NCBI GenBank assembly: GCA_963666055.2
Contig: CAXWPH010000015.1
Location: 2,112,001-2,176,000, forward strand
Source of the DNA: Acidobacteriota bacterium
GTDB taxonomy: Bacteria > Acidobacteriota > UBA890 > WLXD01
Direction of reading: 5' to 3'
DNA length: 64,000 bases
Part shown: piece after piece, positions 1-13,861 of the stretch
How the letters are laid out: the number at the start of each line of letters is the position of its first letter
How positions within the stretch are numbered: the first letter of the stretch is position 1
Program-made: the position numbers and the translations under genes
Notes under the pieces: model-generated
The model's input: only the letters and a program-made list of their open reading frames with translations
What the model was told of the DNA's origin: nothing
Databases searched by the model: none

Positions 1-880
1 TGACGGCCAAGTCGAGCTGCCGCCCTTCGAGCCGCGTTCGTTTTTCTACTTGGACCTGTCGCCGGATGGGCAGCACATCGCGCTCGACATCCTTGGAGAT
101 GATGGAAAGTGGGACATCTGGATCTACGAGGTCGAACGAGGAGGCAGCGGGGTGCTGCTGACCACGGAGGGCAACAACGACACCCCTGTTTGGTCGCCCG
201 ATGGAGAGTGGGTTTTCTTCGCGTCGGATCGGAATGGCAATTTCGACATCTGGAAGCGCCGGGCTGACTGGAGTCTCGCCGCCGAGCTGGTGTTGGATGC
301 AGAGGCTAACGTGTGGCCGGAGTCGATCTCGGACGACGGTGAGATGCTTCTGTTTGACAGCGGGCTCCTCGGGGAGCCCCTCGACGTGGGGGTCCTGGCT
401 CTCGATACAGGTGATGCGGAAATGCTCGTCGCTACCGCCGTCAATGAGCTATCGGGCAGTTTCTCGCCGGACGGTCGCTTCTTCGCCTTTGCTTCGAATG
501 AGACCGGGCAAATGGAGGTGTACGTGCGGGAGGTATCGAGCGGGCGGACATTTTCGGTCTCAACCAGTACCCGTGGTGGTGCTTCCCCTCGCTGGTCGCG
601 GGATGGAAGGGAGATTTACTACGTCTCCTCCAACAGCTCAGGCATCCTCGTTGCGGAAGTGGATTTGGAGTCGTTTTCCGCATCCGACCCTGTCGAAGTC
701 TCGGACATCGTCCTCCGTAGCGAGGGCAACTTCGATGTCACCGCCGATGGCCAGAAGTTCCTGGTGACGGTGCCCGCTGGTACTGATGAGACTGGGGGCA
801 CGGCACCCAACCCACGACTCAATGTCGTCCTCAACTGGTTCGAGGAATTGAACCGGCTAGTGCCGACGGGCGGCTCCTGA
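1..880 (+). CDS. TolB-like/PD40 beta-propeller C-terminal part of a Ser/Thr kinase-propeller protein (5' partial)
   Basis: Repeated WSPDG/FSPDG/WSRDG motifs; C-terminal 'LNVVLNWFEEL.RLVP' signature; frame open from the window edge. Confidence 0.85.
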   Translation, partial: DGQVELPPFEPRSFFYLDLSPDGQHIALDILGDDGKWDIWIYEVERGGSGVLLTTEGNNDTPVWSPDGEWVFFASDRNGNFDIWKRRADWSLAAELVLDAEANVWPESISDDGEMLLFDSGLLGEPLDVGVLALDTGDAEMLVATAVNELSGSFSPDGRFFAFASNETGQMEVYVREVSSGRTFSVSTSTRGGASPRWSRDGREIYYVSSNSSGILVAEVDLESFSASDPVEVSDIVLRSEGNFDVTADGQKFLVTVPAGTDETGGTAPNPRLNVVLNWFEELNRLVPTGGS

Positions 881-1630
881 TGGTCGGCAAGACGCTCGGC
901 CACTACGAGATCCTCGCCCCGCTTGGTGAAGGCGGGATGGGGCAGGTGTACCGAGCACGCGACACGACGCTGGATCGTGATGTCGCCATCAAGGTGCTGC
1001 CGGAGGACTTCGCCAGTGATGCCAACCGGCTGGCTCGCTTCGAGCGCGAGGCCAAGCTCCTCGCCTCGCTGAACCACCCCAACATCGCCACCATTCATGG
1101 GTTCGATGAATCGGACGGTGTGCGCTTCATCGCCATGGAGTTGGTCGAGGGGCAGAGCCTCGCCGAGCGTATTGAAGCCTCCGGTCGCATAGATGTCGAT
1201 GAAGCACTGGAGATCGCCCGCCGGATCGCACTGGCGTTGGAAGCTGCGCACGAGGCTGGTGTCATCCACCGCGATCTCAAGCCCGCCAACGTGCAGGTCG
1301 CACCCGATGGCACCGTGAAGGTGCTCGACTTCGGTCTGGCTAAAGCCTACGCAGCGGATGGCAGCGAACCGTCGTCCGACTTGAGCCATTCGCCCACGAT
1401 GATGGCCGCCACAGGCACGGGCGTGATCATGGGGACGGCTCCCTACATGTGCCCGGAACAGGCGCGGGGACAGCCAGTCGATAAACGTAGCGACATCTGG
1501 TCGTTCGGATGTGTGCTGTACGAGATGCTGGTGGGTAAGAGAGCGTTCGACGGTAAGACCGTCAGCGACACCATGGCGGCGATTCTCAAGGAGGAGCCGG
1601 ATTGGGCATCGCTTCCGGCGGCCACCCCGC
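880..1630 (+). pseudogene. Hanks-type Ser/Thr protein kinase, truncated late in the kinase domain and fused in-frame to unrelated repeat sequence (ORF runs to 2037)
   Basis: GEGGMGQVY, VAIK, HRDLKPAN, DFGLAK, GTAPYM.PEQ, DIWSFG motifs; similarity stops abruptly after WASLPAATP. Confidence 0.85.
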
Positions 1631-1636
1631 TCTCCT

Positions 1637-1713
1637 GCCCGTCTCACCAGTGCATGGACGAACGCGACCCCTACGTGCGCCTGCTACGCGAACTCACGCC
1701 TGATCCGGTAGAG
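1637..1713 (+). repeat. Backbone block A, copy 1 (encodes MDERDPYVRLLRELTPDPVE); copy 2 at ~3729-3805
   Basis: ccgtctcacca..catggacgaacg.gacccct...ctacgcga.ct.acgcctga.ccg.tagag occurs twice. Confidence 0.85.
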
Positions 1714-1810
1714 CGTGCGCTGGTGCAGATCGAAGCCGATACGGCGCTAGCGGAAGTGCGACTCGCGGCTCTCGCGTGTCGGCGTGGCGAGTGTGCGACG
1801 ATTAGGAGTT

Positions 1811-2134
1811 GTGGGGAGGTGGGAGCTTGTGAGAGATGCGAAGGCAGCGGCGATAATGCGGCTGGCTGCCGACCGAATCATCTACAACCAGAAGCAGCAC
1901 CAAGGCCGCGTTTACCGCTGGACGATCTGCGAGAATTGTGGCCGGCTCTGGCACACGCTCGACACCGTCCGCAACGTCATCAAGCGGAATGGCTGCTCAC
2001 GTTGTCTGTGCCCCGCCTTGCCCAGGCTGCCGCCTAAGAAGATTCGCCCTCGTACCCCCGGGATGCCGGCCGGCAGACAATCTGACGCCGGAGAGACGCT
2101 CCCTCCCGTGGACCCTCGCGTGCCCCAGCGATAG
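1811..2134 (+). CDS. Small CxxC-CxxC zinc-finger hypothetical protein, copy 1 (C-terminus probably read-through)
   Basis: AGGAG before GTG 1811; CENC...CSRC; paralog at 4586-4825. Confidence 0.6.
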   Translation: MGRWELVRDAKAAAIMRLAADRIIYNQKQHQGRVYRWTICENCGRLWHTLDTVRNVIKRNGCSRCLCPALPRLPPKKIRPRTPGMPAGRQSDAGETLPPVDPRVPQR

Positions 2135-2145
2135 GCTTCATGCGC

Positions 2146-2460
2146 TCACCCACCCGCCAGCGGTGTCCAGGCTCGGCAGATCCGTTGTCGGCTCTTACCG
2201 TATGAGTAGGCGGACAGGAAGAAGTCTGAGCTGTTCACGGCCTCATCTCTCATGCGACGGTACTCGGTGTCGTCGTTGGCTGCGTGCCGTCCAGCCAGTA
2301 GCCGCCATTTGAACAACTCGTCGGCCAGTCGATCTACCACGACGCCCAGGAGATACGTGGCGACGAGACCCGGCGCGATGAGCCACACCGGCGGGCTGAG
2401 CATCGGCAACATGGGCGGAAAGAGGGCTACGACGATGGCAACGACAAGCCCACCCGCTCC
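2146..2460 (-). pseudogene. Fragment of a membrane protein
   Basis: Hydrophobic helices plus YLLGVVVDRLAD and YGKSRQRICRAW motifs; no clear start; ends abruptly. Confidence 0.4.
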
Positions 2461-2496
2461 AGGCGAGTCAGCACGGCATTGGCGCTGAACGCTGCT

Positions 2497-2700
2497 CTAT
2501 GGATCGGCGCGCATGCGGCTCTGACGGCGCCGCCACCGACGTCGCGCCGTCGCTTGCTTCGCACGCCGGCGCTCGCCCGGCTTTACGAAGTGCTGGTGGC
2601 GCCTGGCATCGCGGAGAATGTTCTCTCGCTGCACGACACGACGAAACCGCCGCAGGGCGTGTTCGATCGATTCGCCGTCCTCGATGCGGACGAAAGCCAT
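2497..2700 (-). CDS. rpsU: 30S ribosomal protein bS21 homolog (67 aa)
   Basis: MAFVRIEDGESIEHALRRFRRVVQRENILRDARRHQHFVKPGERRRAKQATARRR matches the bS21 pattern (ES.E.ALRRF, F.KP..RRR.K..ARRR). Confidence 0.9.
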   Translation of the reverse strand: MAFVRIEDGESIEHALRRFRRVVQRENILRDARRHQHFVKPGERRRAKQATARRRWRRRQSRMRADP

Positions 2701-3006
2701 GGAATGGCTGCTCATGTTGTCTGTGCCCCGCCGCGCCTGCTCGACGACAAGCGGAGGGGGCAACGGAAACCAGCTCGGGGTGGGCTGCATCCTCGAGCAT
2801 GCGAGGCCCCTCAGCACGAGACGTGCCATCGACGCTGCTCTTCGCGGGCCCGGCAGCGAATCGGCTACTGCCCAGCCCAACAGCGGCGGTACTTGCTCCT
2901 CACGCTCGTCCCGCGCCGAGAGGCAACCACATCCTAGACCCCGGCACCCAACCGGGGTAGTGCCTAGCGAACTGCGCCCTTCTTCGTGCCAACCGTCGGC
3001 TCGAGC

Positions 3007-3105
3007 CAGACCAAGCTCGGGCACCGCACGCCGGCCTCGCTGCTGGCCTACCTGGGGATCACGCGAGAAGACGTGCGGAAGGCCAGCGAGCAGATCGAAC
3101 TCTGA
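3007..3105 (+). pseudogene. 3' remnant of a tyrosine recombinase (box II)
   Basis: Translates QTKLGHRTPASLLAYLGITREDVRKASEQIEL*, with LGH and the catalytic Tyr; not in the ORF track. Confidence 0.7.
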
Positions 3106-3632
3106 GCATCCTCGTCACGGCCCTCCCCGGGGCTCTTTGGATTTGCCCTACGTGTCGGGCTCGATGACGACACGCGCACCAGCAATTCCGGCCAAGGTGA
3201 TCAGGTGCTCCAGCGTGGGTGCCCGATTGCCTCTACACCACCCGTGCAGCGACGCCGTGGACCTGATGCCGTAGTGGCTCATGTCCTTCCTAAACGCCGT
3301 GTAGCTCCTCCCATTCTTCAATGCCATAGCCAGGTGCCGAGCGTCTTCTGCACTTTCAAGGACCAGCGGCTCAGTCAGCTTGCCTAGTCCGCCGGGGCGC
3401 GTCGTCTCGTGCATCGGTATGACGTTCCAGGGAGTAAGAAGGAACACCCACTGATTGTTACACGAGTAGCATTACACAGCTACCGCTAGCCCATGAGGAA
3501 GATTCGGTCGGGCCTGCGTTCAGCGAGCGGGAAACAGCGCCGTGCTGCGGGAGATCGGGGCGTGCCTGAGCAGAGAGATACTGGCGATCTTGTCGCAGGA
3601 ACTGCGGGATCAGGAGTGACGTGTGTGGGTGG
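3028..3632 (+). repeat. ~600-bp diverged direct repeat (block D), copy 1; copy 2 at ~7725-8330
   Basis: Long colinear match, e.g. ggaaggccagcgagcagatcgaactctgagcatcctcgtcacggccctccccggggctctttgg identical in both. Confidence 0.95.
3148..3447 (-). CDS. Small XRE/Cro-like HTH protein, copy 1 (alternative start ATG 3414)
   Basis: STASLHGWCRGNRAPTLEHLITLA resembles an XRE recognition helix; near-identical paralog at 7812-8141. Confidence 0.65.
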   Translation of the reverse strand: MFLLTPWNVIPMHETTRPGGLGKLTEPLVLESAEDARHLAMALKNGRSYTAFRKDMSHYGIRSTASLHGWCRGNRAPTLEHLITLAGIAGARVVIEPDT

Positions 3633-3647
3633 CTACCGAGACCTCTC

Positions 3648-3700
3648 CACCATCGGGTCCCATCTAATGCCCCCCCCCCCCCCCCCCCCCCCGGGGGTAT
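3648..3700 (+). repeat. caccatcgggtcccatct motif, C23 homopolymer and ccgggggt; second copy with short C-tract at 4898-4934
   Basis: 18-bp exact match at 3648-3665 and 4898-4915; C-run 3670-3692. Confidence 0.85.
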
Positions 3701-3809
3701 GGGTCGCCAGGGAATCGTCGCACTCGTGGCCGTCTCACCAAGGCATGGACGAACGGGACCCCTTCGACCGCCAGCTACGCGACCTTACGCCTGAGCCGAT
3801 AGAGGGGTC

Positions 3810-4402
3810 TTATCCGTCGCCCGTTCCCGGCCCGCTCGATTGCTCGGCTCCATTGCCAGTTTCCGCGCCCCCGCCATCGCTCGAGGCATCCGGCTCCGGC
3901 GGTGCTTCATCTTCGTCCTCCAACGGAATCGGAGCCTCGCTATCCGGGGGCTCGATGTCAGCGGAATCGGAACTCCCATCGGCACGTTGTCCTGTGCCCA
4001 TCCAGGCGTAGACAGCGCCCAGGATTGCGCCGTAGACCAGATGACCCATGAGGCTGGGCATCATGCTGCCGGCGGCCTCTAGGTTCCAGTTGACACCCAT
4101 GCCCATCCCCATGAACAAGGGCATGAGCGTGAGCGGGCCCAACAACCACCAGATCACGCCGTAGCCGAGCCCATACCCCAAGCCGCTTCCCATCCCGCTC
4201 ACCATCGAGCCCAAGACGATGCCAAACGCGGCTCCGATGATGGCACTGTTAACCATGTGGACGAGAAAGCCTGCGAAAGCCGATGGAGACTCAACCATGC
4301 TGCCGATCATTGGCAGCATCCCCATCATTCCCATCATGGCTCCGAACACCACGCCCCGGCCAGGCCGCCGTAGATGCCCTTCTTGATGTTGTCCGCGTTC
4401 AT
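3810..4402 (-). pseudogene. Met/Gly-rich multi-pass membrane protein (DUF1440/DUF6789-like) with acidic tail; 1-nt frameshift near 4356
   Basis: GGGAGG RBS and ATG 4402 give MNADNIKKGIYGGLAG, which joins VVFGAMMGMM if one G is added to a G-run; H-containing TM motifs (FLVHM, LMGHLVYG). Confidence 0.7.
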
Positions 4403-4479
4403 CCGAAGCACCTCCCTTGGATGGTTAATTAACAGCCGGCGGATTCCGTCGCCCGTGAGAGTGATCCAAAGACCCCCAC

Positions 4480-4512
4480 GCGAACTTATGAAGTTTGCCT
4501 GCCCTCTGTCAA
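4480..4512 (-). promoter_or_regulatory. Putative sigma70 -35 (TTGACA) with an overlapping palindromic operator upstream of the membrane-protein gene
   Basis: tgtcaa at 4507-4512; gcgaactt-atg-aagtttgc imperfect inverted repeat at 4480-4498. Confidence 0.45.
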
Positions 4513-4585
4513 CGGAACGGCTATCGCCAAGCGTATGCGGCGTCCTTCCCGACCAGCGTGGCGGGGTGTGCGACGATTAGGGGTT

Positions 4586-4825
4586 ATGGGTGAGCGGTGG
4601 CAGCTTACGAGGGATCCGAGGGCAGCGGCGATAATGCGCCTGGCTGACGACCGGATCGTCTACAAGCAGAACCAGCACCCAGCCCGCGACTACGTGTGGA
4701 CGATCTGCGACGCCTGTGGTCGGCTCTGGTACACGCTCGAGATCGTCCGCACCATCATCAAGCGCGATGGCTGCTCACGTTGTCTGTACCCTGGCGGTCG
4801 CAAGCGCGATCAGACTGCCGCCTAA
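4586..4825 (+). CDS. Small CxxC-CxxC zinc-finger hypothetical protein, copy 2 (79 aa)
   Basis: AGGGG before ATG; CDAC...CSRC; colinear with the 1811 copy. Confidence 0.65.
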   Translation: MGERWQLTRDPRAAAIMRLADDRIVYKQNQHPARDYVWTICDACGRLWYTLEIVRTIIKRDGCSRCLYPGGRKRDQTAA

Positions 4826-5311
4826 GATCCCGTAGGGCCTCGGTCCTCAGCACACCGCGTGCGTGCGAAACCCCTCAACGCGAGACGAGCGGTTCCTCAC
4901 CATCGGGTCCCATCTGTACTCCCCCACCGGGGGTGCGTCGCGTACGTTGCTTCGCGAAGCGACAGCAGGGGAGCGAGCCGATCTGCTGCTGCATTGACGC
5001 ATCTCGGCTCAGGTAGAAGTGAACAGAATATAGGGGTGCGGCGCAGGGGCTTGGGCAAGTCCGTGTCGGGGTCGCCCCCAACGACTTTAGCGTCAGATTT
5101 CGATCTTCTCGCTGGCCTTTCTCACGTCCTGGGTGCGTGGTATCTGCTGTAGACACGGATGGCGATTCCTTCACTTACGGCAGGGCCGAGCAGCTTGTCT
5201 TCATGTCGTGGCGACGATTCCTTCTACCTTCCGGTGGCGCTCATGCAGGCACACCGAAATGACCCCCACCACCTACCGAGCCCGATGAGAGGCGAGCCCT
5301 AGAAGGGCCCG

Positions 5312-5752
5312 CTACGTGAGTCGCTCGGGGTCAGGAGACAGGCTCATGGGCCGCGCCTCCACGACCATGAGTAGGGTCTCAAACTCTACAGCCACGACGA
5401 AGCTGCGTGCTCCTTCTCCGGTCCGCAACACCCTTCCCTTCAGCGTCTGTCGCGGGATCTCCAGCGTCCGGAGGGTGTACCCGCACTGCGGGCACTTGCT
5501 GTCGGGGTCCAGAGGAAGAGGATGTCTCTCTTCGAGGATCTGCACGACACAACGAGTCCCTTCGGCCAGCCTCTCGTTGATCTGCGCCAGCATGCCACCA
5601 CGGCTCACGTTGACCATGTGACCGTGCAGCGGTGCCCGACGGTTCATCCTGAGCTCGATCGGGATGGAGACGTCGGCTCGCGGATGCTCGCGACGAGTAG
5701 AATTACTCCAACCGCTAATGTGCATGGGCGTGCCCGTTCCTTTTCCCACCAT
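5312..5752 (-). CDS. PilZ domain protein with a CPQCG insertion
   Basis: RREHPR (RxxxR) and NVSRGG (D/NxSxxG) c-di-GMP-binding motifs; C-terminal VAVEF. Confidence 0.8.
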   Translation of the reverse strand: MVGKGTGTPMHISGWSNSTRREHPRADVSIPIELRMNRRAPLHGHMVNVSRGGMLAQINERLAEGTRCVVQILEERHPLPLDPDSKCPQCGYTLRTLEIPRQTLKGRVLRTGEGARSFVVAVEFETLLMVVEARPMSLSPDPERLT

Positions 5753-6264
5753 GCTTCGCTGGTACTAATTGCTCAAGCGCGGGCTCAATGAGACTCAGCT
5801 TCTATGCTGTGAAACGTATCGAACACGTTGGATCAGTTCAACACATTGTTCATATGCCCAGCTAATCTGGATTGTTCAACATTAATCAATAGTAACTTCC
5901 AAGGGACGAATAGGGTCACGAAGGCCGTGCCCTTTCCCTCGGGCAGGCCCAAGGCGCATCAGATCGCCGGCCTACCCCCAAGGAGACGGCATGCCAGCCT
6001 CTCCGAGGCCATCATCCTGAGCGGCCGCACGCGGTTCTCGTAATCTCCTTGAGCTCCTCGATCTCGGGTGGCCCGGCTGCTCTCCCGTGGTGAGAGCCGA
6101 TCTATTCCGCTAGGCTGAGCAGCCTTGCGGAGCACCGCCGACGGTAGGCCGGATCAGTGATGACCGCAGACCCCTTCCCGGACCTGCGAGCGAAAGGGAG
6201 CAAGAACGAAACATGACTGCGGTCGCTTCGTAGTTGGCGACCGAAGGACTAGCGGGAGGTAGCA

Positions 6265-6498
6265 ATGGCACTCATTCAGTGTTGGGGTTGCGGGCATCAA
6301 GTGTCGGATAAGGAGAAGAGGTGCGCCGGTTGTGGGACCCCGATCGCCAAAGAGGAACCCATCGCGGCGCCCGTTGAGACCACCGCTGGGCCGCGCGACA
6401 CGGACAATGCGTCCGAGCAAAAAACCCCGCACGCTCTTTCCGCGAGACTCGCCAAGCGTCTAGCAGGGCTCCGCGCCAAGGCCCGCAAGAGCGAATGA
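6265..6498 (+). CDS. Zinc-ribbon domain protein (possibly internally deleted)
   Basis: GGGAGG RBS; MALIQCWGCG..VSD....CAGCGTPI. Confidence 0.75.
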   Translation: MALIQCWGCGHQVSDKEKRCAGCGTPIAKEEPIAAPVETTAGPRDTDNASEQKTPHALSARLAKRLAGLRAKARKSE

Positions 6499-6540
6499 CC
6501 CCGACCACCCACCGAGTCCCCGAGTGAGAGGCCGCCGCGC

Positions 6541-6870
6541 ATGAGCAAGCCGAGCTTCGTCGCTGGCGGGCACTACTCGGCCTACGTGGAGGTTCGTCAC
6601 CTCAAGCGGATGAACGACCTCGATGGCGCCAAGGAGCTTCTCCTGCGCCTGGTGGACGCCACAGAGGCCGAGGCCGCCGCCGAGGGCGAAGGCTGCGGGG
6701 TTGATCCGTGGTACTACGAGCAGCTTGCAATGATCTACCGGAAGAAGAAGCAGCCAGCCGATGAGCTCGCGATCCTCGAGCGGCACGAACGACAACCGAA
6801 GGCCCCTGGGACGGTTTCAGAGAGGCTGGCCAAGCGCCTGGCCGGCCTGCGACCCAAGGCGGACGAGTGA
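6541..6870 (+). CDS. Helical TPR-like hypothetical protein
   Basis: PWYYEQLAMIYRK...ELAILER helical-repeat pattern; GAGG upstream. Confidence 0.6.
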   Translation: MSKPSFVAGGHYSAYVEVRHLKRMNDLDGAKELLLRLVDATEAEAAAEGEGCGVDPWYYEQLAMIYRKKKQPADELAILERHERQPKAPGTVSERLAKRLAGLRPKADE

Positions 6871-6944
6871 GAGGCCGTTCCGCCGCCACCCCGCGCCCTG
6901 TCGCCTACCCCCGCTGCCAGTTCGGCTCCTACCTCGGCGAGATC

Positions 6945-7057
6945 AGCGTTTCGTGATGTTCCCAGGCAGCAACGAGAGCCAGACCGGCAGCGGCCATGTG
7001 ACGCTGATCACCAACTGGTTCGACGAGCTGAAGCGGCTAGTGCCGACGGACCCGTAG
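6945..7057 (+). pseudogene. C-terminal remnant of a kinase-TolB propeller gene
   Basis: QRFVMF...VTLITNWFDELKRLVPTDP* is homologous to the C-terminus at 820-880. Confidence 0.7.
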
Positions 7058-7422
7058 CGCCCTCAGCCGAGTCTCGCGAGCCACCCAGCGACCTCCGATT
7101 CCGCTCGTCCCCAATGCCCGAGCAGACACCAGTCATATGTCTTCTTAAGAGGCCGGAGAAGGCCCGCTAAGGGCCGCCGGCAGCCTCTACGTGTTCGGCC
7201 ACGAAATGTGCGCCGTGGGCGTTAGAAGGGCGCTGAGGGGGGCTGGGTCGTCCTTACTTCCAGGCTCCCTCGAACGGCGGCTGGGGAAACATGAGGTGCG
7301 CTGCCCTCCGGCGTTTGTTCGTCGAAAACTCGTTGTTTCCTCAGAACTTCTTCAGGACTCCTGGCCCTAGAGTTGGCACCCTCTGGGGGTTCTTTGGACG
7401 AGTCTGCAAAGGAGGTCAGAGG

Positions 7423-7654: not shown

Positions 7655-7724
7655 CTACGGAACCCTGAGCCTGGTGCCGGGAGGGAAGCTGTCTCCCCAC
7701 TGGCAGGAGCGATATCGCGATGAC

Positions 7725-7802
7725 ACGCCTGCGTCGCTACTCGCCTATCTGGGGATCACCCGAGAGGACGTTAGGAAGGCCAGCGAGCAGATCGAACTCT
7801 GA
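7725..7802 (+). pseudogene. 3' remnant of tyrosine recombinase, copy 2
   Basis: TPASLLAYLGITREDVRKASEQIEL* is the same peptide as the 3007 copy, with synonymous changes. Confidence 0.7.
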
Positions 7803-7811
7803 GCATCCTCG

Positions 7812-8141
7812 TCACGGCCCTCCCCGGGGCTCTTTGGCGTGCGCGCCGTCGGGCTCGATGACGACACGCGCTCCCGCAATTCCGGCCAACGTGATCAGGT
7901 GCTCCAGCGTGGGCACTCGGTTACCTCTACACCACCCGTGCAGGCTGGCTGTCGACCTGATGCCGTGCGCAGCCATGTCCTTCCTGAACGCCGTGTAGCT
8001 CCTGCCATTCTTCAGCGCCATAGCCAGGTGCCGAGCGTCTTCTGCACTTTCGAGGAGCAGCGGCTCAGTCAGCTTGCCTAGTCCATCGGAGTGCTTCGTC
8101 TCGTGCATCGGTATGACGTTCCAGGGAGTAAGAAGGAACAC
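7812..8141 (-). CDS. Small XRE/Cro-like HTH protein, copy 2
   Basis: Paralog of 3148-3447. Confidence 0.65.
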   Translation of the reverse strand: MFLLTPWNVIPMHETKHSDGLGKLTEPLLLESAEDARHLAMALKNGRSYTAFRKDMAAHGIRSTASLHGWCRGNRVPTLEHLITLAGIAGARVVIEPDGAHAKEPRGGP

Positions 8142-8389
8142 CCACTGATTATTACACGAGTTACATTACACGCCTACCGTTAGCCCACGAGGAAGATTCG
8201 GTCGGCCGGCGTTCAGCGAGCGGGAAACAGCGCCGTGCTGCGGGATATCAGGGCGTGTCTGAGCAGGCAGATTACTGGCGATCTTGTCGGGCGGGCTGGG
8301 GGACCAGGGGTGACGTGTGTGTGGGGCGGCATGCGGCGACTACAAGGGGGACGAATTCGACGCGCCGCCGGCACAGGGACGGGCCGTCA

Positions 8390-8839
8390 TCACTTTGCCG
8401 GGTACCTCTTCCGAACGACGCTGGCAAGGCTTACGCCGATCTCAAGATCGTCCGCGTGCAAGCCGCGGATCTCGGAGTGCGAAGCTGATCCAGGCTGAGG
8501 GTCGTGCATCGTCTGGACATCCAATTGATTGCTTTCTGCAAGGTTGCGCTCCAGCGTGCCGACCCTCAACAAGGCCAAGACGGCGCTAACGCGGCGCGTT
8601 ATCCCCTGGCCGTCGAGATCCTGGCGGATGCTCTCGACTTTTGCATCGTCATCGGAGAGCGTGCTGTAGTACTCAAGCCAATTGACCGAGAGACAACCTT
8701 GGTCCTGCGAACGAGGCATGAATGCACCCGGACCGGGCTTGCCGTCTTTCTCAAGGTGGCTTCCACCGCAGTAACGAATCACATGATCCTTCGACGGTAT
8801 TCTGCCTGCCGAAGGGACAACGTTGGTGGACTCGATCAC
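8390..8839 (-). CDS. Hypothetical protein, putative ADP-ribosyltransferase-fold toxin
   Basis: VIRY...AF.PR....LSVNW...H.P....SHSEI.G pattern resembles ART R-S-type strands; ATGA overlap with the upstream gene. Confidence 0.55.
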   Translation of the reverse strand: MIESTNVVPSAGRIPSKDHVIRYCGGSHLEKDGKPGPGAFMPRSQDQGCLSVNWLEYYSTLSDDDAKVESIRQDLDGQGITRRVSAVLALLRVGTLERNLAESNQLDVQTMHDPQPGSASHSEIRGLHADDLEIGVSLASVVRKRYPAK

Positions 8840-9636
8840 GATTGAACAACTCCCAGTCGACCTAGCCGCTCCACGAGTTCGCGCTGATCCACGGTGCCGG
8901 CGACACGAGTCTCGGGACGGGATCTACGGCGCTGGATCAGCACGAATCGGGCACGACCCTCGGCTTGGAACTCGACAACCAACTGCTGGCGTCTCCCCCG
9001 CCACTCGGCAATCCAGCCACCATGAGGACTCAAAGTAACCTCGGGCTCGCCAAACCCTGATCGCACTAGGAAGGTCAGGAGAGCACGTAGGCCCGGGGGA
9101 CTAGGCTCCACGTTATCGGCCTCTTCAGCCTGCATCTCCATTAGGCATCGAAGGCGATCTGGAAGATCCTGAGAGAGGCCAGGTGCAGTCAAGGCGTGTT
9201 TCTTCGCCCACCCGACAAGCTCCACACACGCGATATTCGCCCCGGGTATCAACGTTGCTTCAAGAGTCTCCCAGGGAGCGGTGAGCAGTCTCCGCCAGGT
9301 AACGCCCGTACTTCGCACCGCATGTAACGCCCTTCTGACAAGGGTCAGTGCGCGAAGCCATGTGACGGCAGAACGTGCTAGGACACCCGGGTCACTCGGC
9401 AGGCGCTCCGCGACGTAGACTGACTGGTCTGTCCGGATTGGCTCCCAGGGGCGTTCTTGCCGCTGCCCCGATATCTCGGGCGCCCACTCTCGCAGTCGCG
9501 TGACCGACCTCGTGTTTAAGGACACTCCGAGGCTCATGAATCGCTGTCCCGCGACCTCGTACGTAACTCGTGGGTATCCAGTGTCGAATGGGGCCACATT
9601 GATATGTGTCGAAGATGTGTCGGCGGCGGGACTCAT
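8836..9636 (-). CDS. Hypothetical protein, putative antitoxin
   Basis: 266-aa ORF coupled by ATGA overlaps on both sides; C-terminal domain RL..L...PS..LRALL.FL...EP.VTLSP.GG..AEW...LVVEF. Confidence 0.6.
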   Translation of the reverse strand: MSPAADTSSTHINVAPFDTGYPRVTYEVAGQRFMSLGVSLNTRSVTRLREWAPEISGQRQERPWEPIRTDQSVYVAERLPSDPGVLARSAVTWLRALTLVRRALHAVRSTGVTWRRLLTAPWETLEATLIPGANIACVELVGWAKKHALTAPGLSQDLPDRLRCLMEMQAEEADNVEPSPPGLRALLTFLVRSGFGEPEVTLSPHGGWIAEWRGRRQQLVVEFQAEGRARFVLIQRRRSRPETRVAGTVDQRELVERLGRLGVVQS

Positions 9637-9986
9637 GCTTCCTTCGGTGCGACTTCGTCACCGCCGGGATCGTGCTTTTGTTGTTTGGCCTGGAGGAACC
9701 GAGCGGTGTTGTCCCCCAGAGCAGCCATTATCTTCAACATAGCCTCTGGACAAATCACCAAACGCGCTACGGGCTTTACGGAGATGTGATCTGGAACGTC
9801 ATCTGGTCGCTTCGACAGGTCGGGGATGTGCGGAGAGAACGCTTGGCCGAAGACGATGTAGAACTCTCCATTCCCGTGCGAGACGATGACTTGGTTCGCG
9901 CATTGCACATCGAGGTCGCTGCCATCCTCCCAGCGAAGCTGGACCTGGATGCCCGCCGGCTCTTTGGGCGATTCTTGATCTGCCAT
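9633..9986 (-). CDS. DUF3467-like protein (117 aa)
   Basis: GAGGT RBS before ATG 9986; ANQV.VS...EFYI.FG...PVARLVI.P....I..AL..N pattern. Confidence 0.65.
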   Translation of the reverse strand: MADQESPKEPAGIQVQLRWEDGSDLDVQCANQVIVSHGNGEFYIVFGQAFSPHIPDLSKRPDDVPDHISVKPVARLVICPEAMLKIMAALGDNTARFLQAKQQKHDPGGDEVAPKEA

Positions 9987-10328
9987 CTGAGACCTCATCA
10001 AGTTAGGAGCCGGGGCGAGACGTGTCAGGCACGAGCGAATCGTGGAATTCATGCCCTGACACCAGGGTGTCAGTCTAGAGGAGAAGGACCGGCAAGAAGT
10101 CAAGCCTAGTGTCTCGGATCGGTCGATTCCAGGAGTCGAATACCGTGGGGAGGAGGGGGAGCGAATCGCCCGCACCCGGAATGGTTACTCCAGGGTGCGT
10201 ATAGGGTGCACTTCTCGTCACCACAGGCCACAGAGCCCCTTGGTATAAGGGCTTGTCGCGGGTGGCGAAATAATGTTCCACAATCACCCGTATCGACGAT
10301 TCGGCGACGAGTCGAGAGGACGTCGGAA

Positions 10329-10646
10329 TCACCTGGCAGATCCCGCAAGCCGGTAAAGGACCTCGTCTGCCTCGCGACGGGCGTCGTTGTCATCGTTTAC
10401 TCGTTCCATCCAGTCCAGCAAATCGCCCCACAGGACACGGACCTTGCCCCCGCCTGGCGGTCGACGCGCCGGGAGCGGACGGCTGGGTCGGCGTGTCCAC
10501 TTGTGTACGGTCGACGGGTCGCATTCACAAAGCTGGGCGATCCGCGCCACCGGCAGGAGCGATTGGCGCGACACGGGAGGAGGTCCGTCAAGGTCGTCGG
10601 CGAGAGATCGGAGACCGTCTGCAAGCCGCTTGAATTCCGTGCTCAA
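10329..10646 (-). CDS. Excisionase-like HTH DNA-binding protein
   Basis: GAGGGG before TTG 10646; LLPVARIAQLCECDPSTVHKW...LPA.R..GGG.VRV...DLLDW. Confidence 0.7.
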   Translation of the reverse strand: MSTEFKRLADGLRSLADDLDGPPPVSRQSLLPVARIAQLCECDPSTVHKWTRRPSRPLPARRPPGGGKVRVLWGDLLDWMERVNDDNDARREADEVLYRLAGSAR

Positions 10647-10719
10647 CAGCCACCCCTCGTTGATTGAGGCCCAGCTGATCTGGCGGGCTGCTCTCCGGAC
10701 GCACCGGCGTGCAAGGTTC

Positions 10720-11400
10720 TCACGATGCTGGGCGCAATCTGTGGTCAGGTGCGATGACTTCAACGCAACGGCAAACGTGCTTGATCCTCGACATGAGCCG
10801 CGTCCCGATGTAGCCGACGAGCTGCTCCTGGCTCAAGTTCGTTGTCATCATTACTGGGCTCGCTTGCTCGTACCGAAGACCCAACAAGTCGGTCAGCTTT
10901 TCGAATTTCCAGTCGGTCGTTCGCTGCGCCCCGACTTCATCGAGGACGAGAACATCCACGCCGAGGAGTTCGTTGAATACTTCCGTCTCCGACTCGATCA
11001 CGCTTGGCTGCATCGCGTCCTTGAGCCGTCGGAAGAGTGCCGGTGTCGAGATGAACCTTCCCGAAGCGCCCTTCTCGATGAGAGCATGTAGCGTACTTAC
11101 CAAGAGGTGCGTCTTGCCCCCGCCCGGTGGGCCGTGAAGCAACAATCCACGGTCCACACCCGAACCGTAGCTGTCGACTACTTCGAGACAGGCTGCGTGC
11201 GCTGATCTAGCGGATTCGGATACGCCCGTGTCGAAATTGTCGAACTGCATCTGCGCATACATCGGTGGGATGCCGGCAGCGTGGCAACGCCGCGCAGCGA
11301 TGGCAAGCAGACGGCATTCGCAGCGCCTGACAGGCTGGCCAGCCGATTCGAGACCCACAAAGCCGGTGTCGCCGCATTTTCGACAAGTGTCGTCGCTCAT
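10720..11400 (-). CDS. DnaC/IstB-like AAA+ helicase loader
   Basis: N-terminal CxxC..CEC; Walker A GPPGGGKT; Walker B LVLDEVG; MMTTNL; ATGA overlap with rep. Confidence 0.9.
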   Translation of the reverse strand: MSDDTCRKCGDTGFVGLESAGQPVRRCECRLLAIAARRCHAAGIPPMYAQMQFDNFDTGVSESARSAHAACLEVVDSYGSGVDRGLLLHGPPGGGKTHLLVSTLHALIEKGASGRFISTPALFRRLKDAMQPSVIESETEVFNELLGVDVLVLDEVGAQRTTDWKFEKLTDLLGLRYEQASPVMMTTNLSQEQLVGYIGTRLMSRIKHVCRCVEVIAPDHRLRPAS

Positions 11401-12152
11401 GTGTAGTACTCGCGTGAGATGGTGAGGCCATCCGGGCCCTGAACTGGTAAAGCGGGTTCGATCTCGTCCTCCCAACGGCGCTGGTTCAGCCAGGAGGCGG
11501 GGCGCGGAACGTAGCGTCCGCTGTCTCTTTGCCATTCCCTCTGTTTGCTCTGCTGGGCGACGGCCTCGAGCAGGTCAACTATGGGGGGACGTAGCTCGGC
11601 AGTCTTGCCCCACGCCTTCTGCGCTGCGCCCCTCCCCTGCCTGCGCGGGTACGAGCTCCAGAACCGATCAAAGCCTGAACTTTGATTCCGCGCACCAAGA
11701 GAGTCTTTCTTCTTTCGTCTCGGTTCTTTCTTCTTACTTAGGGTGCCGCCGGTAGGGCCGTCGGTCGTTACCTCGGTAGTGCCGTCGGTGGTGCCGTCGG
11801 TCTGCCGTTGGTCCTCATCGACTGCCTGGAATCCCAAGAAGTTACAGACCGTTACGAGGTTACCGCGGTTTGCCCTCGGCTCGGTCGTCAGCATCCCCGC
11901 TGCGGCGAGCTTGTCGGCCGCTCGGCGGAGCTGCTTCACGGTCAATCCGGTGGTGTCGGCCATTTCGCGCCAACACGCGAAGTACTGGCCCGGCTGTAGC
12001 ACTAGAATCTGCCCGGCTACATCCCAAGGAGTCGGTTTGTACGCGGCGCGTTCAATCGAGTAGCGGAAGAAGAGGCTGGCCGCCGCATCGCCACGCAACA
12101 CCGGGTTCTGAATGATGCGGCGGTGCATCTTCACCCAGCCACCATGGCTCAA
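11397..12152 (-). CDS. Phage-type replication initiator (replisome organizer)
   Basis: N-terminal GWVKMHR.I; C-terminal FDRFWSSYPRR...YVPRPASWLNQRRWEDE. Confidence 0.85.
   Translation of the reverse strand: MSHGGWVKMHRRIIQNPVLRGDAAASLFFRYSIERAAYKPTPWDVAGQILVLQPGQYFACWREMADTTGLTVKQLRRAADKLAAAGMLTTEPRANRGNLVTVCNFLGFQAVDEDQRQTDGTTDGTTEVTTDGPTGGTLSKKKEPRRKKKDSLGARNQSSGFDRFWSSYPRRQGRGAAQKAWGKTAELRPPIVDLLEAVAQQSKQREWQRDSGRYVPRPASWLNQRRWEDEIEPALPVQGPDGLTISREYYT
11743..11802. repeat. Five 12-bp tandem repeats (putative iterons) inside the rep gene
   Basis: gtgccgccggta / gggccgtcggtc / gttacctcggta / gtgccgtcggtg / gtgccgtcggtc, next to a T-rich tract at 11704-11740. Confidence 0.7.
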
Positions 12153-12400
12153 GTCCCGCCGCGCCCGGCGTCAGACGATGAGAGAGGCTCGGCGTAGAAC
12201 ACCTCGCCGATCTCACGATCCAGCGCGCCAGCGATCCGAAAGGCCGATTCCAATCGCATCGCCGGACGGTGCCCGTTGGCGATGCGCGACAAAGCCGGCT
12301 CCGTGATCCCGGCCCGGTGGGCGAGTATGCGAAGGGGGGTGTTCCCTCGTAGTAGGTGGATTCGGTTAGAGATTCGAACGGCTGCTTCCAGATTCGTCAC
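12149..12400 (-). CDS. Cro-like XRE HTH regulator
   Basis: LAHRAGITEPALSRIANG...IAGALD; divergent from the cI-like gene. Confidence 0.85.
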   Translation of the reverse strand: MTNLEAAVRISNRIHLLRGNTPLRILAHRAGITEPALSRIANGHRPAMRLESAFRIAGALDREIGEVFYAEPLSSSDAGRGGT

Positions 12401-12423
12401 CGCGAGCGCCTTCCAAGTGTTGA

Positions 12424-12481
12424 TTTAAGAGTAACGATAAGCCATACTCTTAAAGCTATGACGGAATGATGATACTGTCAA
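12424..12481 (-). promoter_or_regulatory. Switch region: perfect 10-bp inverted repeat operator and leftward sigma70 promoter
   Basis: tttaagagta (12424-12433) N11 tactcttaaa (12445-12454); minus strand TTGACA-N17-TAGCTT (12481 to 12453). Confidence 0.7.
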
Positions 12482-12528
12482 GGCTAATGCCTCTTGTATC
12501 TGTGTGACGAAACAGGGAGGTTCCCGAA

Positions 12529-13086
12529 TTGCCAAGGGATTCGGCGGTTGGAAAGCGGATCAGAGAACTTCGAGGTAGCCGGACCGTGCGGGAACTCGCC
12601 GGAATGGCGCGGATGAGCCCTTCGGCGCTCTCTCGTATTGAGAACGGTCACGTGAAGCCTGAGTACGGAACGCTCGAGAAGATTGCTGGAGCGCTGAACC
12701 TCGAAGTCTCCGACATCATCGGCGCACAACCTGACCGGGTCGTATGGATGGAGGTGCCCGAGAACGCTCCACCCGAGTTCCAGGAGTTCCTGCGGGAAGC
12801 GCTCCGCAGCACGCCGTTACTGCCTGTCGATCGCCTGCTGCTGGAACACGAACTCCGGAGCTCCACGGCTCCGACGACCGTCGGCGAATGGCATATGAAA
12901 CTCGCCGATTTGCGTCGGACACCCCGTTACAACCTTATGCAACTGATTCTCGACAGCGACGCCTTTCCAGAGTCGATTTGGCCGATGGCGCTAATGATGG
13001 TCCAGACTTTGAGAGATGTTTCCACGGGGGCTATCGAGATCGGCAAGGGGGGAGCATTCGATAAGGCTACAGTCTTCCGCACTTGA
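12529..13086 (+). CDS. CI-like XRE repressor (no recognisable S24 peptidase domain)
   Basis: GGGAGG RBS; VGKRIRELR...ELA...MSPSALSRIENG...TLEKIAGAL. Confidence 0.85.
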   Translation: MPRDSAVGKRIRELRGSRTVRELAGMARMSPSALSRIENGHVKPEYGTLEKIAGALNLEVSDIIGAQPDRVVWMEVPENAPPEFQEFLREALRSTPLLPVDRLLLEHELRSSTAPTTVGEWHMKLADLRRTPRYNLMQLILDSDAFPESIWPMALMMVQTLRDVSTGAIEIGKGGAFDKATVFRT

Positions 13087-13108
13087 CGTAAGTAGCGATG
13101 AGGAGGGG

Positions 13109-13765
13109 ATGAAGGCGTACACGGTGGATCAACTCGATCGACTGTTGAGCGCCGTACCGGAGGTCTGTCCCGACACCGATCGCCGACTGCTGATCGAAAC
13201 GCTTGCCGCTTCAGCATGTCGGATCTCCGAGGTGCTTGGCCTACAGCATGATGACCTCGACAGGGTGGCGTGCGAGCTTACGGTCCGTCGTCAGTTGTAC
13301 CAGGGGCAGGAGACTACGCCGAAGGGGCGCCGCTCGAGGGTGGTATTGATGCCCGACCACTTAGTGGCTCGGTTGCGGCAGTTGCGCGTTGAGCAGGAGC
13401 AACGAGCCCTAGCTCAGGGTCGTGTCATGACGCCGTGGATGTTTCAGCAGCACAACGGTCGTCCGTTCCTCGGTGGGCCTCTGAGGGTTCGCTCTTGGAA
13501 GCGTATCGTCCGCCGCGCAGGGGTGCCCGACCACGGGTTCCACGGTCTGCGCCACACTCGCATTTCTTTGTGGATGGAGGCGGGCGTCAACCCCCGTCGC
13601 ATTGCCTCGATGGCAGGCCACCGGAACATGACGTACACGATGCAGAAGTACGGTCACGTAATCCCCGATGCCGACATGTTGGTGCACCCGGCCAAGGTGC
13701 CCTACAGAGGTCGAAGCACGGCGCGGAGCCGGGAAATGCAGTCGGGAGACCAACTAGCCCAGTAG
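13109..13765 (+). CDS. Tyrosine recombinase, catalytic domain only (218 aa)
   Basis: AGGAGG RBS; ACRISE (R), TPKG (K), HGLRH, AGH, KYGH (Y). Confidence 0.9.
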   Translation: MKAYTVDQLDRLLSAVPEVCPDTDRRLLIETLAASACRISEVLGLQHDDLDRVACELTVRRQLYQGQETTPKGRRSRVVLMPDHLVARLRQLRVEQEQRALAQGRVMTPWMFQQHNGRPFLGGPLRVRSWKRIVRRAGVPDHGFHGLRHTRISLWMEAGVNPRRIASMAGHRNMTYTMQKYGHVIPDADMLVHPAKVPYRGRSTARSREMQSGDQLAQ

Positions 13766-13861
13766 CTAGATGTGCCCCCGCTGCACCCTATATGCGACCA
13801 TCGGAAACGGGATGTCGATAGATGGTCCTCATAAGTCTTTTATGATCAGACTGTTAAGGGC

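Follow-up and report, generated by a model that had tools for sequence, protein, structure and literature searches.

Three small genes overlap end to end on the minus strand of a 64,000-nt stretch of Acidobacteriota DNA ("the window"), and the question they raise is whether they form a toxin-antitoxin (TA) system and, if so, what the third gene does in it. The gene order is helper-antitoxin-toxin: ORF1 (9633..9986; 117 aa), a DUF3467 protein and predicted helper (chaperone/sensor); ORF2 (8836..9636; 266 aa), the likely antitoxin; and ORF3 (8390..8839; 149 aa), a predicted toxin with an ADP-ribosyltransferase (ART) fold. All three ORFs are intact. An earlier note on this DNA gave both overlaps as ATGA; this is correct for ORF1 and ORF2 (9633-9636), but ORF2 and ORF3 share GTGA (8836-8839), the start codon of ORF3 being GTG. 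The reading frame of ORF1 stays open as far back as a GTG at 10175, but a GAGG lies 7 nt upstream of the ATG at 9986. GC3 is 0.62-0.68 in ORF1-ORF3, versus 0.75-0.83 in three host genes.

ORF3 is confidently predicted to be an ART-fold protein with the ART beta-sheet core (predicted structure pLDDT 92.6), in keeping with the ART layout that the earlier note had read from its motifs. The family alignment conserves R22 (8774-8776), F40, S51 (8687-8689), and H121 (8477-8479). The proposed Arg and Ser strands and late SH.EI motif are real as far as R22, S51, and H121 go, but the glutamate of SH.EI is not conserved: E occupies position 123 in 12 of 170 alignment rows, while H121 is kept in 157. A cholera-toxin-like R-S-E enzyme with a late-strand catalytic Glu is ruled out by these counts; judged by its conserved residues, the family has an R-S-H set, as in Tse2. 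ORF3 would be toxic through R22/S51/H121, by ADP-ribosylation or NAD cleavage, with NAD dependence read solely from the conservation of R/S/H. The best fold match is KptA/Tpt1, and because KptA, DarT, Scabin, and TreX are all neighbors in fold searches, our guess for the target is nucleic acid. Foldseek gave no match against pdb at E 0.001 and one match, without a name, against BFVD. Searches of PDB sequences (ORF3, A2, A4, A5, A6, A7, and A11) returned no meaningful relative, and tblastn of ORF3 against plasmid and phage collections returned none.

Among the top fold matches, Tse2, a type VI secretion system (T6SS) effector of P. aeruginosa, has the highest identity (16%). It resembles ORF3 in fold, size, and an Arg/Ser/His pocket (R14/T79/S80/H122 in Tse2), a likeness that does not come from residue-level superposition. 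However, Tse2 is secreted and paired with Tsi2, whereas ORF3 has neither a secretion context nor a sequence match to it. KptA/Tpt1, DarT, and the RES toxins (ParT, MbcT, and VPA0770) differ in their conserved residues and partner genes, and Pfam gave no match in 109 members of the ORF3 family. The family is scattered across many phyla and is present in 2 of 151 relatives. By their record titles, many toxin loci come from taxa typical of sponge microbiomes (Poribacteria, Latescibacterota, Dadabacteria, and Rhodothermales).

With the pattern SVNWLEY, we assembled 161 toxin-family loci, from 80 of 111 genome matches, 1 viral match, and 80 of 101 metagenome matches. An ORF2 homolog lies directly upstream of the toxin gene in 152 of the 161, and in 149 of the 150 that leave 300 nt or more of space for it; in the single exception (L074), a transposase separates the two. 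The coupling of these genes is therefore more than chance, and for the same reason ORF2 is likely the cognate antitoxin of ORF3. ORF2 homologs are sporadic, occurring in 7 of 301 genomes of the phylum. In one locus (L049:2649-5784), four ORF2-like genes surround the toxin gene in a tandem array, possibly of orphan antitoxins.

The earlier note had also described ORF2 as a C-terminal domain behind a long N-terminus, and the family alignment bears this out. Conservation is confined to the C-terminal ~100 residues (residues 155-256, 8869-9174, with an invariant Trp212), and the preceding variable extension (about residues 1-150, 9187-9636) is poorly conserved (median identity 13%, versus 21%). 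Where a third gene is lacking, the part of ORF2 before the invariant Trp is no longer than 130 aa in 15 of 30 loci; where one is present, this holds for 1 of 108, a locus with a split third gene (5 rows from short contigs were left out; p 0.015, for rows that are related by kinship and not independent). The window ORF2 has the long form. This joint loss of extension and third gene fits the prediction of chaperone addiction: according to the available portion of PMC5105189, the antitoxin of a toxin-antitoxin-chaperone (TAC) system becomes chaperone-independent without its extension, an element that also works when grafted N-terminally. In six long ORF2 forms from two-gene loci (L005, L017, L018, L025, L029, and L071; about 4150-5000), a conserved HTH-like N-terminal domain replaces the extension.

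The slot ahead of the ORF2-ORF3 pair is exchangeable. In the 123 loci whose upstream sequence extends for 1,500 nt or more, it holds a TIGR04255-type gene in 58, an unnamed ~220-aa family (family X) in 35, and neither in 30; of 75 proteins scanned, 21 scored above the TIGR04255 cut-off. ORF2 and the third gene are coupled: in 100 of 107 loci the start lies no more than 40 nt away, and 51 have a 4-nt overlap. DUF3467 occupies the slot in none of the 161 loci, which counts against the trio as a conserved unit; the earlier expectation that all three genes would co-occur elsewhere thus holds for the ORF2-ORF3 pair but not for the exact trio. The commoner forms are TIGR04255-ORF2-ART and familyX-ORF2-ART (L002-L194, e.g., L019:3449-5420 and L003:3608-5450), with more distant TIGR04255-ORF2-like-ART-like operons in L209-L211. 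We found no internal repeat in TIGR04255 or family X, and no function described for these third genes in the literature searched. Profile comparisons among DUF3467, TIGR04255-type proteins, family X, and SecB gave nothing significant (SecB-TIGR04255 E 0.026 and TIGR04255-X E 0.016, both with a probability <3%).

ORF1 matches Pfam PF11950 (DUF3467) with E 2.3e-5 (24.8 bits, just below the 25-bit gathering cut-off); two close relatives exceed that cut-off (L243, 45 bits; L198, 33 bits), and the ESM-Atlas clusters closest to it are DUF3467, as the earlier note had suspected. A single-copy core DUF3467 gene is present in 187 of 301 phylum genomes (a tally that takes in G166 and G047, both unpublished and used for no other claim here), and it often lies in a lexA-DUF3467-nth operon (L246-L269). 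The source genome has this copy too (G000:C15:919703-919978), so that ORF1 is a second, divergent one; SecB (PF02556) was not found in that genome. In a tree of 77 DUF3467 rows, ORF1 falls apart from the core copies, in a clade (support 98/95) of 21 rows, 19 labeled TA-linked and 2 solo. The topology is tentative, because branches are long, columns are few, and it was resemblance to ORF1 that brought the rows of the clade together. At E 1e-10 this large subfamily comprises 1,716 clusters. A search of 241 Pseudomonadota genomes did not find it: the 19 weak matches all group with core DUF3467, and none was seen beside a TA pair. Nor did tblastn of ORF1 and an L198 relative find any match in plasmids.

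A neighborhood survey of DUF3467, which the earlier note had proposed, places the family repeatedly as the third gene of TA operons. In five genomes picked for extra DUF3467 copies, 3 of 11 loci are TA-linked: HigB(Gp49)-HigA with a long C-terminal tail-DUF3467 (L197:644-1821), DUF3467-HicB-like-HicA-like (L198), and DUF3467-146 aa-DUF7689 (L203). Thirty weak-scoring copies yielded one more HigB-HigA-DUF3467 operon (L252:1465-2794), the rest being mostly the lexA-DUF3467-nth core locus. L197 and L252 have the layout of HigBAC with DUF3467 in the place of SecB, which makes them the cleanest test cases; in the tentative tree, their DUF3467 genes fall outside the ORF1 clade, which suggests two separate recruitments to TA operons. 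The closest relative of ORF1 that we found lies on a viral contig, where it heads DUF3467-109 aa-RelE.

Chloroflexota were surveyed by DUF3467 likeness alone: searched with a profile built from ORF1, L198, and L203, 21 of 251 genomes yielded 24 matches, four of core type and 20 of ORF1 type. Fifteen of the 20 are followed by two coupled genes, one by a HicB-like gene only, and four by neither. The toxins of these operons include PIN (L274 and L295) and ParE (L278 and L294) by Pfam, a HEPN-like protein (L289; E 2e-6), and two that are RelE-like by eye (L273 and L281); the last genes of L279 and L280 have no family assignment. Five related ~100-aa proteins without a database match stand behind HicB-like genes whose best PDB matches are HicB (E 0.08), and by our own reading they are HicA-like. 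The HicB-like domain begins ~75 positions in, versus residue 5 in solved HicB, and the N-terminal extension so formed faces the DUF3467 gene; the HigA tails of L197 and L252 are C-terminal and face DUF3467 from the other side. In L288:400-1821, a DUF3467 gene precedes a 255-aa protein that is not like ORF2 and a distant ORF3-family member (E 4e-4). Because its relatives repeatedly head unrelated TA operons, DUF3467 is likely a previously unrecognized helper, which would stabilize antitoxins and might also serve as a phage sensor. One protein of 198 aa (P0124) contains two ORF1-type domains in tandem, a hint that the domain acts at least as a dimer. Structure prediction of ORF1 without an alignment gave pLDDT 43, and the fold search matched its last helix alone, which is meaningless; a predicted complex of two ORF1 chains (alignment A10) with ORF2 residues 5-82 scored 0.00, and, the fold of the partner being uncertain, favors neither side.

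We favor, with some reserve, the view that the cassette is a TAC-like, chaperone-addicted system. ORF1, in a role modeled on the SecB-like chaperones of TAC systems, would be a dedicated helper that binds the variable N-terminal extension of ORF2 and keeps ORF2 folded and stable; the C-terminal domain of ORF2 would in turn hold and neutralize ORF3, the predicted NAD-using toxin. A phage protein or stress might then titrate ORF1 and leave ORF2 to misfold or be degraded, whereupon ORF3 would be released and infection abort; the phage step by itself is plausible but more doubtful than the scheme as a whole. The observations from which the scheme starts are the three coupled ORFs, the ORF2-ORF3 pairing, the exchangeable slot, the recurrence of DUF3467, and the association of the extension with the third gene, and from these we infer all of its biochemistry.

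The cassette shares with TAC systems (HigBAC, Mtb TAC, and CmdTAC; available portions of PMC5105189, PMC11618068, and 10.1101/2024.02.24.581848) three coupled genes and an antitoxin extension beside the third gene; in both, the toxin family is exchangeable, and CmdTAC too has an ART toxin. The differences are that the third gene is DUF3467 (TIGR04255 or family X in relatives) without detectable likeness to SecB profiles (hhalign E 0.81 for DUF3467; no SecB match to ORF1 in Pfam, all at profile level, so that the two may still share a fold); that the genes run helper-antitoxin-toxin and the extension is N-terminal, whereas TAC systems have toxin-antitoxin-chaperone with a C-terminal one; and that ORF2 ends in a conserved domain that looks folded. 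Both have a variable antitoxin extension that goes with the third gene, though it is N-terminal here; the TAC order with a C-terminal extension occurs only in L197 and L252. The earlier note had likened the cassette to CmdTAC in particular, and kinship with it was not supported. As described in the accessible text of PMC11618068, CmdT is a diphtheria-class ART with H-Y-[E/D/Q], and the unstructured part of CmdA is C-terminal; the R22/S51/H121 of the ORF3 family and the N-terminal extension of ORF2 differ on both counts, and we rejected homology to CmdT. PADLOC 2.0, whose library possibly lacks the models, gave no CmdT/CmdC (PD-T4-9) match for the three ORFs and 109 ORF3 relatives. The cassette thus likely works like a TAC system while departing from it, as far as tested, in SecB and gene order, and is likely not CmdTAC.

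PADLOC, which the earlier note had named as a check, gave no match above noise for the window proteins (ORF2 none to PDC-M32A; ORF3 E 0.024 to PDC-M32B). In the wider families, 11 of 64 ORF2 relatives match the C-terminal ~100 positions of PDC-M32A (best 6e-6), and 5 of 109 ORF3 relatives match PDC-M32B (best 0.019). True members match far more strongly (1e-153 and 1e-38; accessible part of PMC12429752), the PDC-M32A model is 375 positions long, and neither ORF2/ORF3 nor their relatives match both models at member level. The two weak matches fall on both genes of one candidate, which makes a distant kinship between the pair and PDC-M32 likely. PDC systems are themselves predictions, and M32 does not appear in the main text, as available, of 10.1101/2024.01.29.577857.

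Genomic recurrence is association, not mechanism, and DUF3467 could be a true third component of the TA pair that acts as a regulator or protease adaptor and not as a stabilizing chaperone, for example, by handing the antitoxin over for degradation or by binding nucleic acid or the toxin. The lack of SecB likeness would allow this, and the core paralog in lexA-DUF3467-nth operons of many Acidobacteriota hints at a regulatory role. We consider it unlikely, since the antitoxin extension points toward the DUF3467 gene whichever way the genes are ordered, and its loss tracks that of the third gene, the signature of chaperone addiction (PMC5105189, portion available).

It is quite unlikely that ORF3 is no suicide toxin for defense and the cassette a plain addiction/stabilization module of the element, or that ORF3 is a non-toxic, KptA-like, NAD-dependent RNA-modifying/repair enzyme with ORF2 as its partner: the family is sporadic over many phyla, has an obligate small partner gene, shares its R-S-H set with the toxin Tse2, and shows weak kinship to PDC-M32, a guilt-by-embedding defense candidate. 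What such a reading would explain is the KptA/Tpt1 fold match, the silence of PADLOC on the window proteins, and a toxin family with one viral locus and none in phage or plasmid collections. There is also a slim chance that ORF1 is a bystander, the ORF2-ORF3 pair having landed, without its former TIGR04255-type gene, behind an unrelated DUF3467 gene. The absence of DUF3467 from the toxin-family loci, the 30 of 123 loci without a recognized third gene, and the four solo copies of ORF1 type all suit this account. Against it, the ATGA coupling of ORF1 resembles the 4-nt overlap of 51 of the 107 three-gene relatives, ORF1 belongs to the TA-linked clade in a genome with a separate core copy, ORF2 retains its long form, and L288 is a second DUF3467-X-ART-like operon.

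If the chaperone-addiction reading is true, the consequences extend beyond this locus. In characterized TAC systems, a SecB-like chaperone is both stabilizer and phage sensor (PMC5105189, PMC11618068, and 10.1101/2024.02.24.581848, in the portions available); in CmdTAC and HigBAC, the competitor for the chaperone is a structural protein of the phage (the latter two sources). Such sensor modules are exchangeable among toxins. A second, unrelated, and widespread class of helpers would be a large set of new phage sensors, would give a function to two uncharacterized families (DUF3467 and TIGR04255), and would come with a new R-S-H family of ART effectors. We found no description of non-SecB third genes in literature on DUF3467, TIGR04255, PDC-M32, and TAC systems (subscription papers lay outside the scope), including the available parts of PMC11980606 and PMC6099711, and no literature under PF11950, IPR021857, IPR026349, or CHP04255.

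The cassette is cargo of an integrated element that is probably defective. Its DNA (8330-13860) was not found in any of the 5 relatives sharing the host gene from 13862; a search for an att repeat of at least 12 bp found none. Upstream of ORF1, also on the minus strand, are genes for an excisionase-like HTH_17 protein (10329..10763; Pfam E 3.6e-4), a DnaC/IstB-type helicase loader ATPase (10720..11535; Pfam IstB_IS21 6e-17, NCBIfam PRK08116 1e-32), a probable rep-like replication initiator assigned from position, without a family match (11397..12152; a paralog lies on contig C2), and a Cro-like HTH protein (12149..12400; Pfam HTH_3). These are followed on the plus strand by a CI-like HTH repressor (12529..13086; Pfam HTH_3 3e-10) and a tyrosine integrase catalytic domain (13016..13765; Pfam Phage_integrase 1.7e-18, residues 36-215), the N-terminal part of which is apparently missing from the upstream frames inspected. 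A probable replication core does lie beside the cassette, as the earlier note had it, but the label of "satellite" is dropped, as a prophage remnant would fit equally. In a second element (G000:C2, about 328000-358000), the HTH_17, rep-like, and integrase genes all have relatives, but the three cassette genes do not. Twice in the window (7724-8327 and 3027-3633; 88% identical) there is a unit of ~600 bp whose ~100-aa ORF matches no family; the genome has at least 4 copies of it, and one of the two in the window abuts the cassette. Positions 1-7200 hold pieces of genes for Ser/Thr kinases and beta-propeller proteins, which have very many paralogs genome-wide; a kinase among them (880-2037) is seemingly broken near its end.
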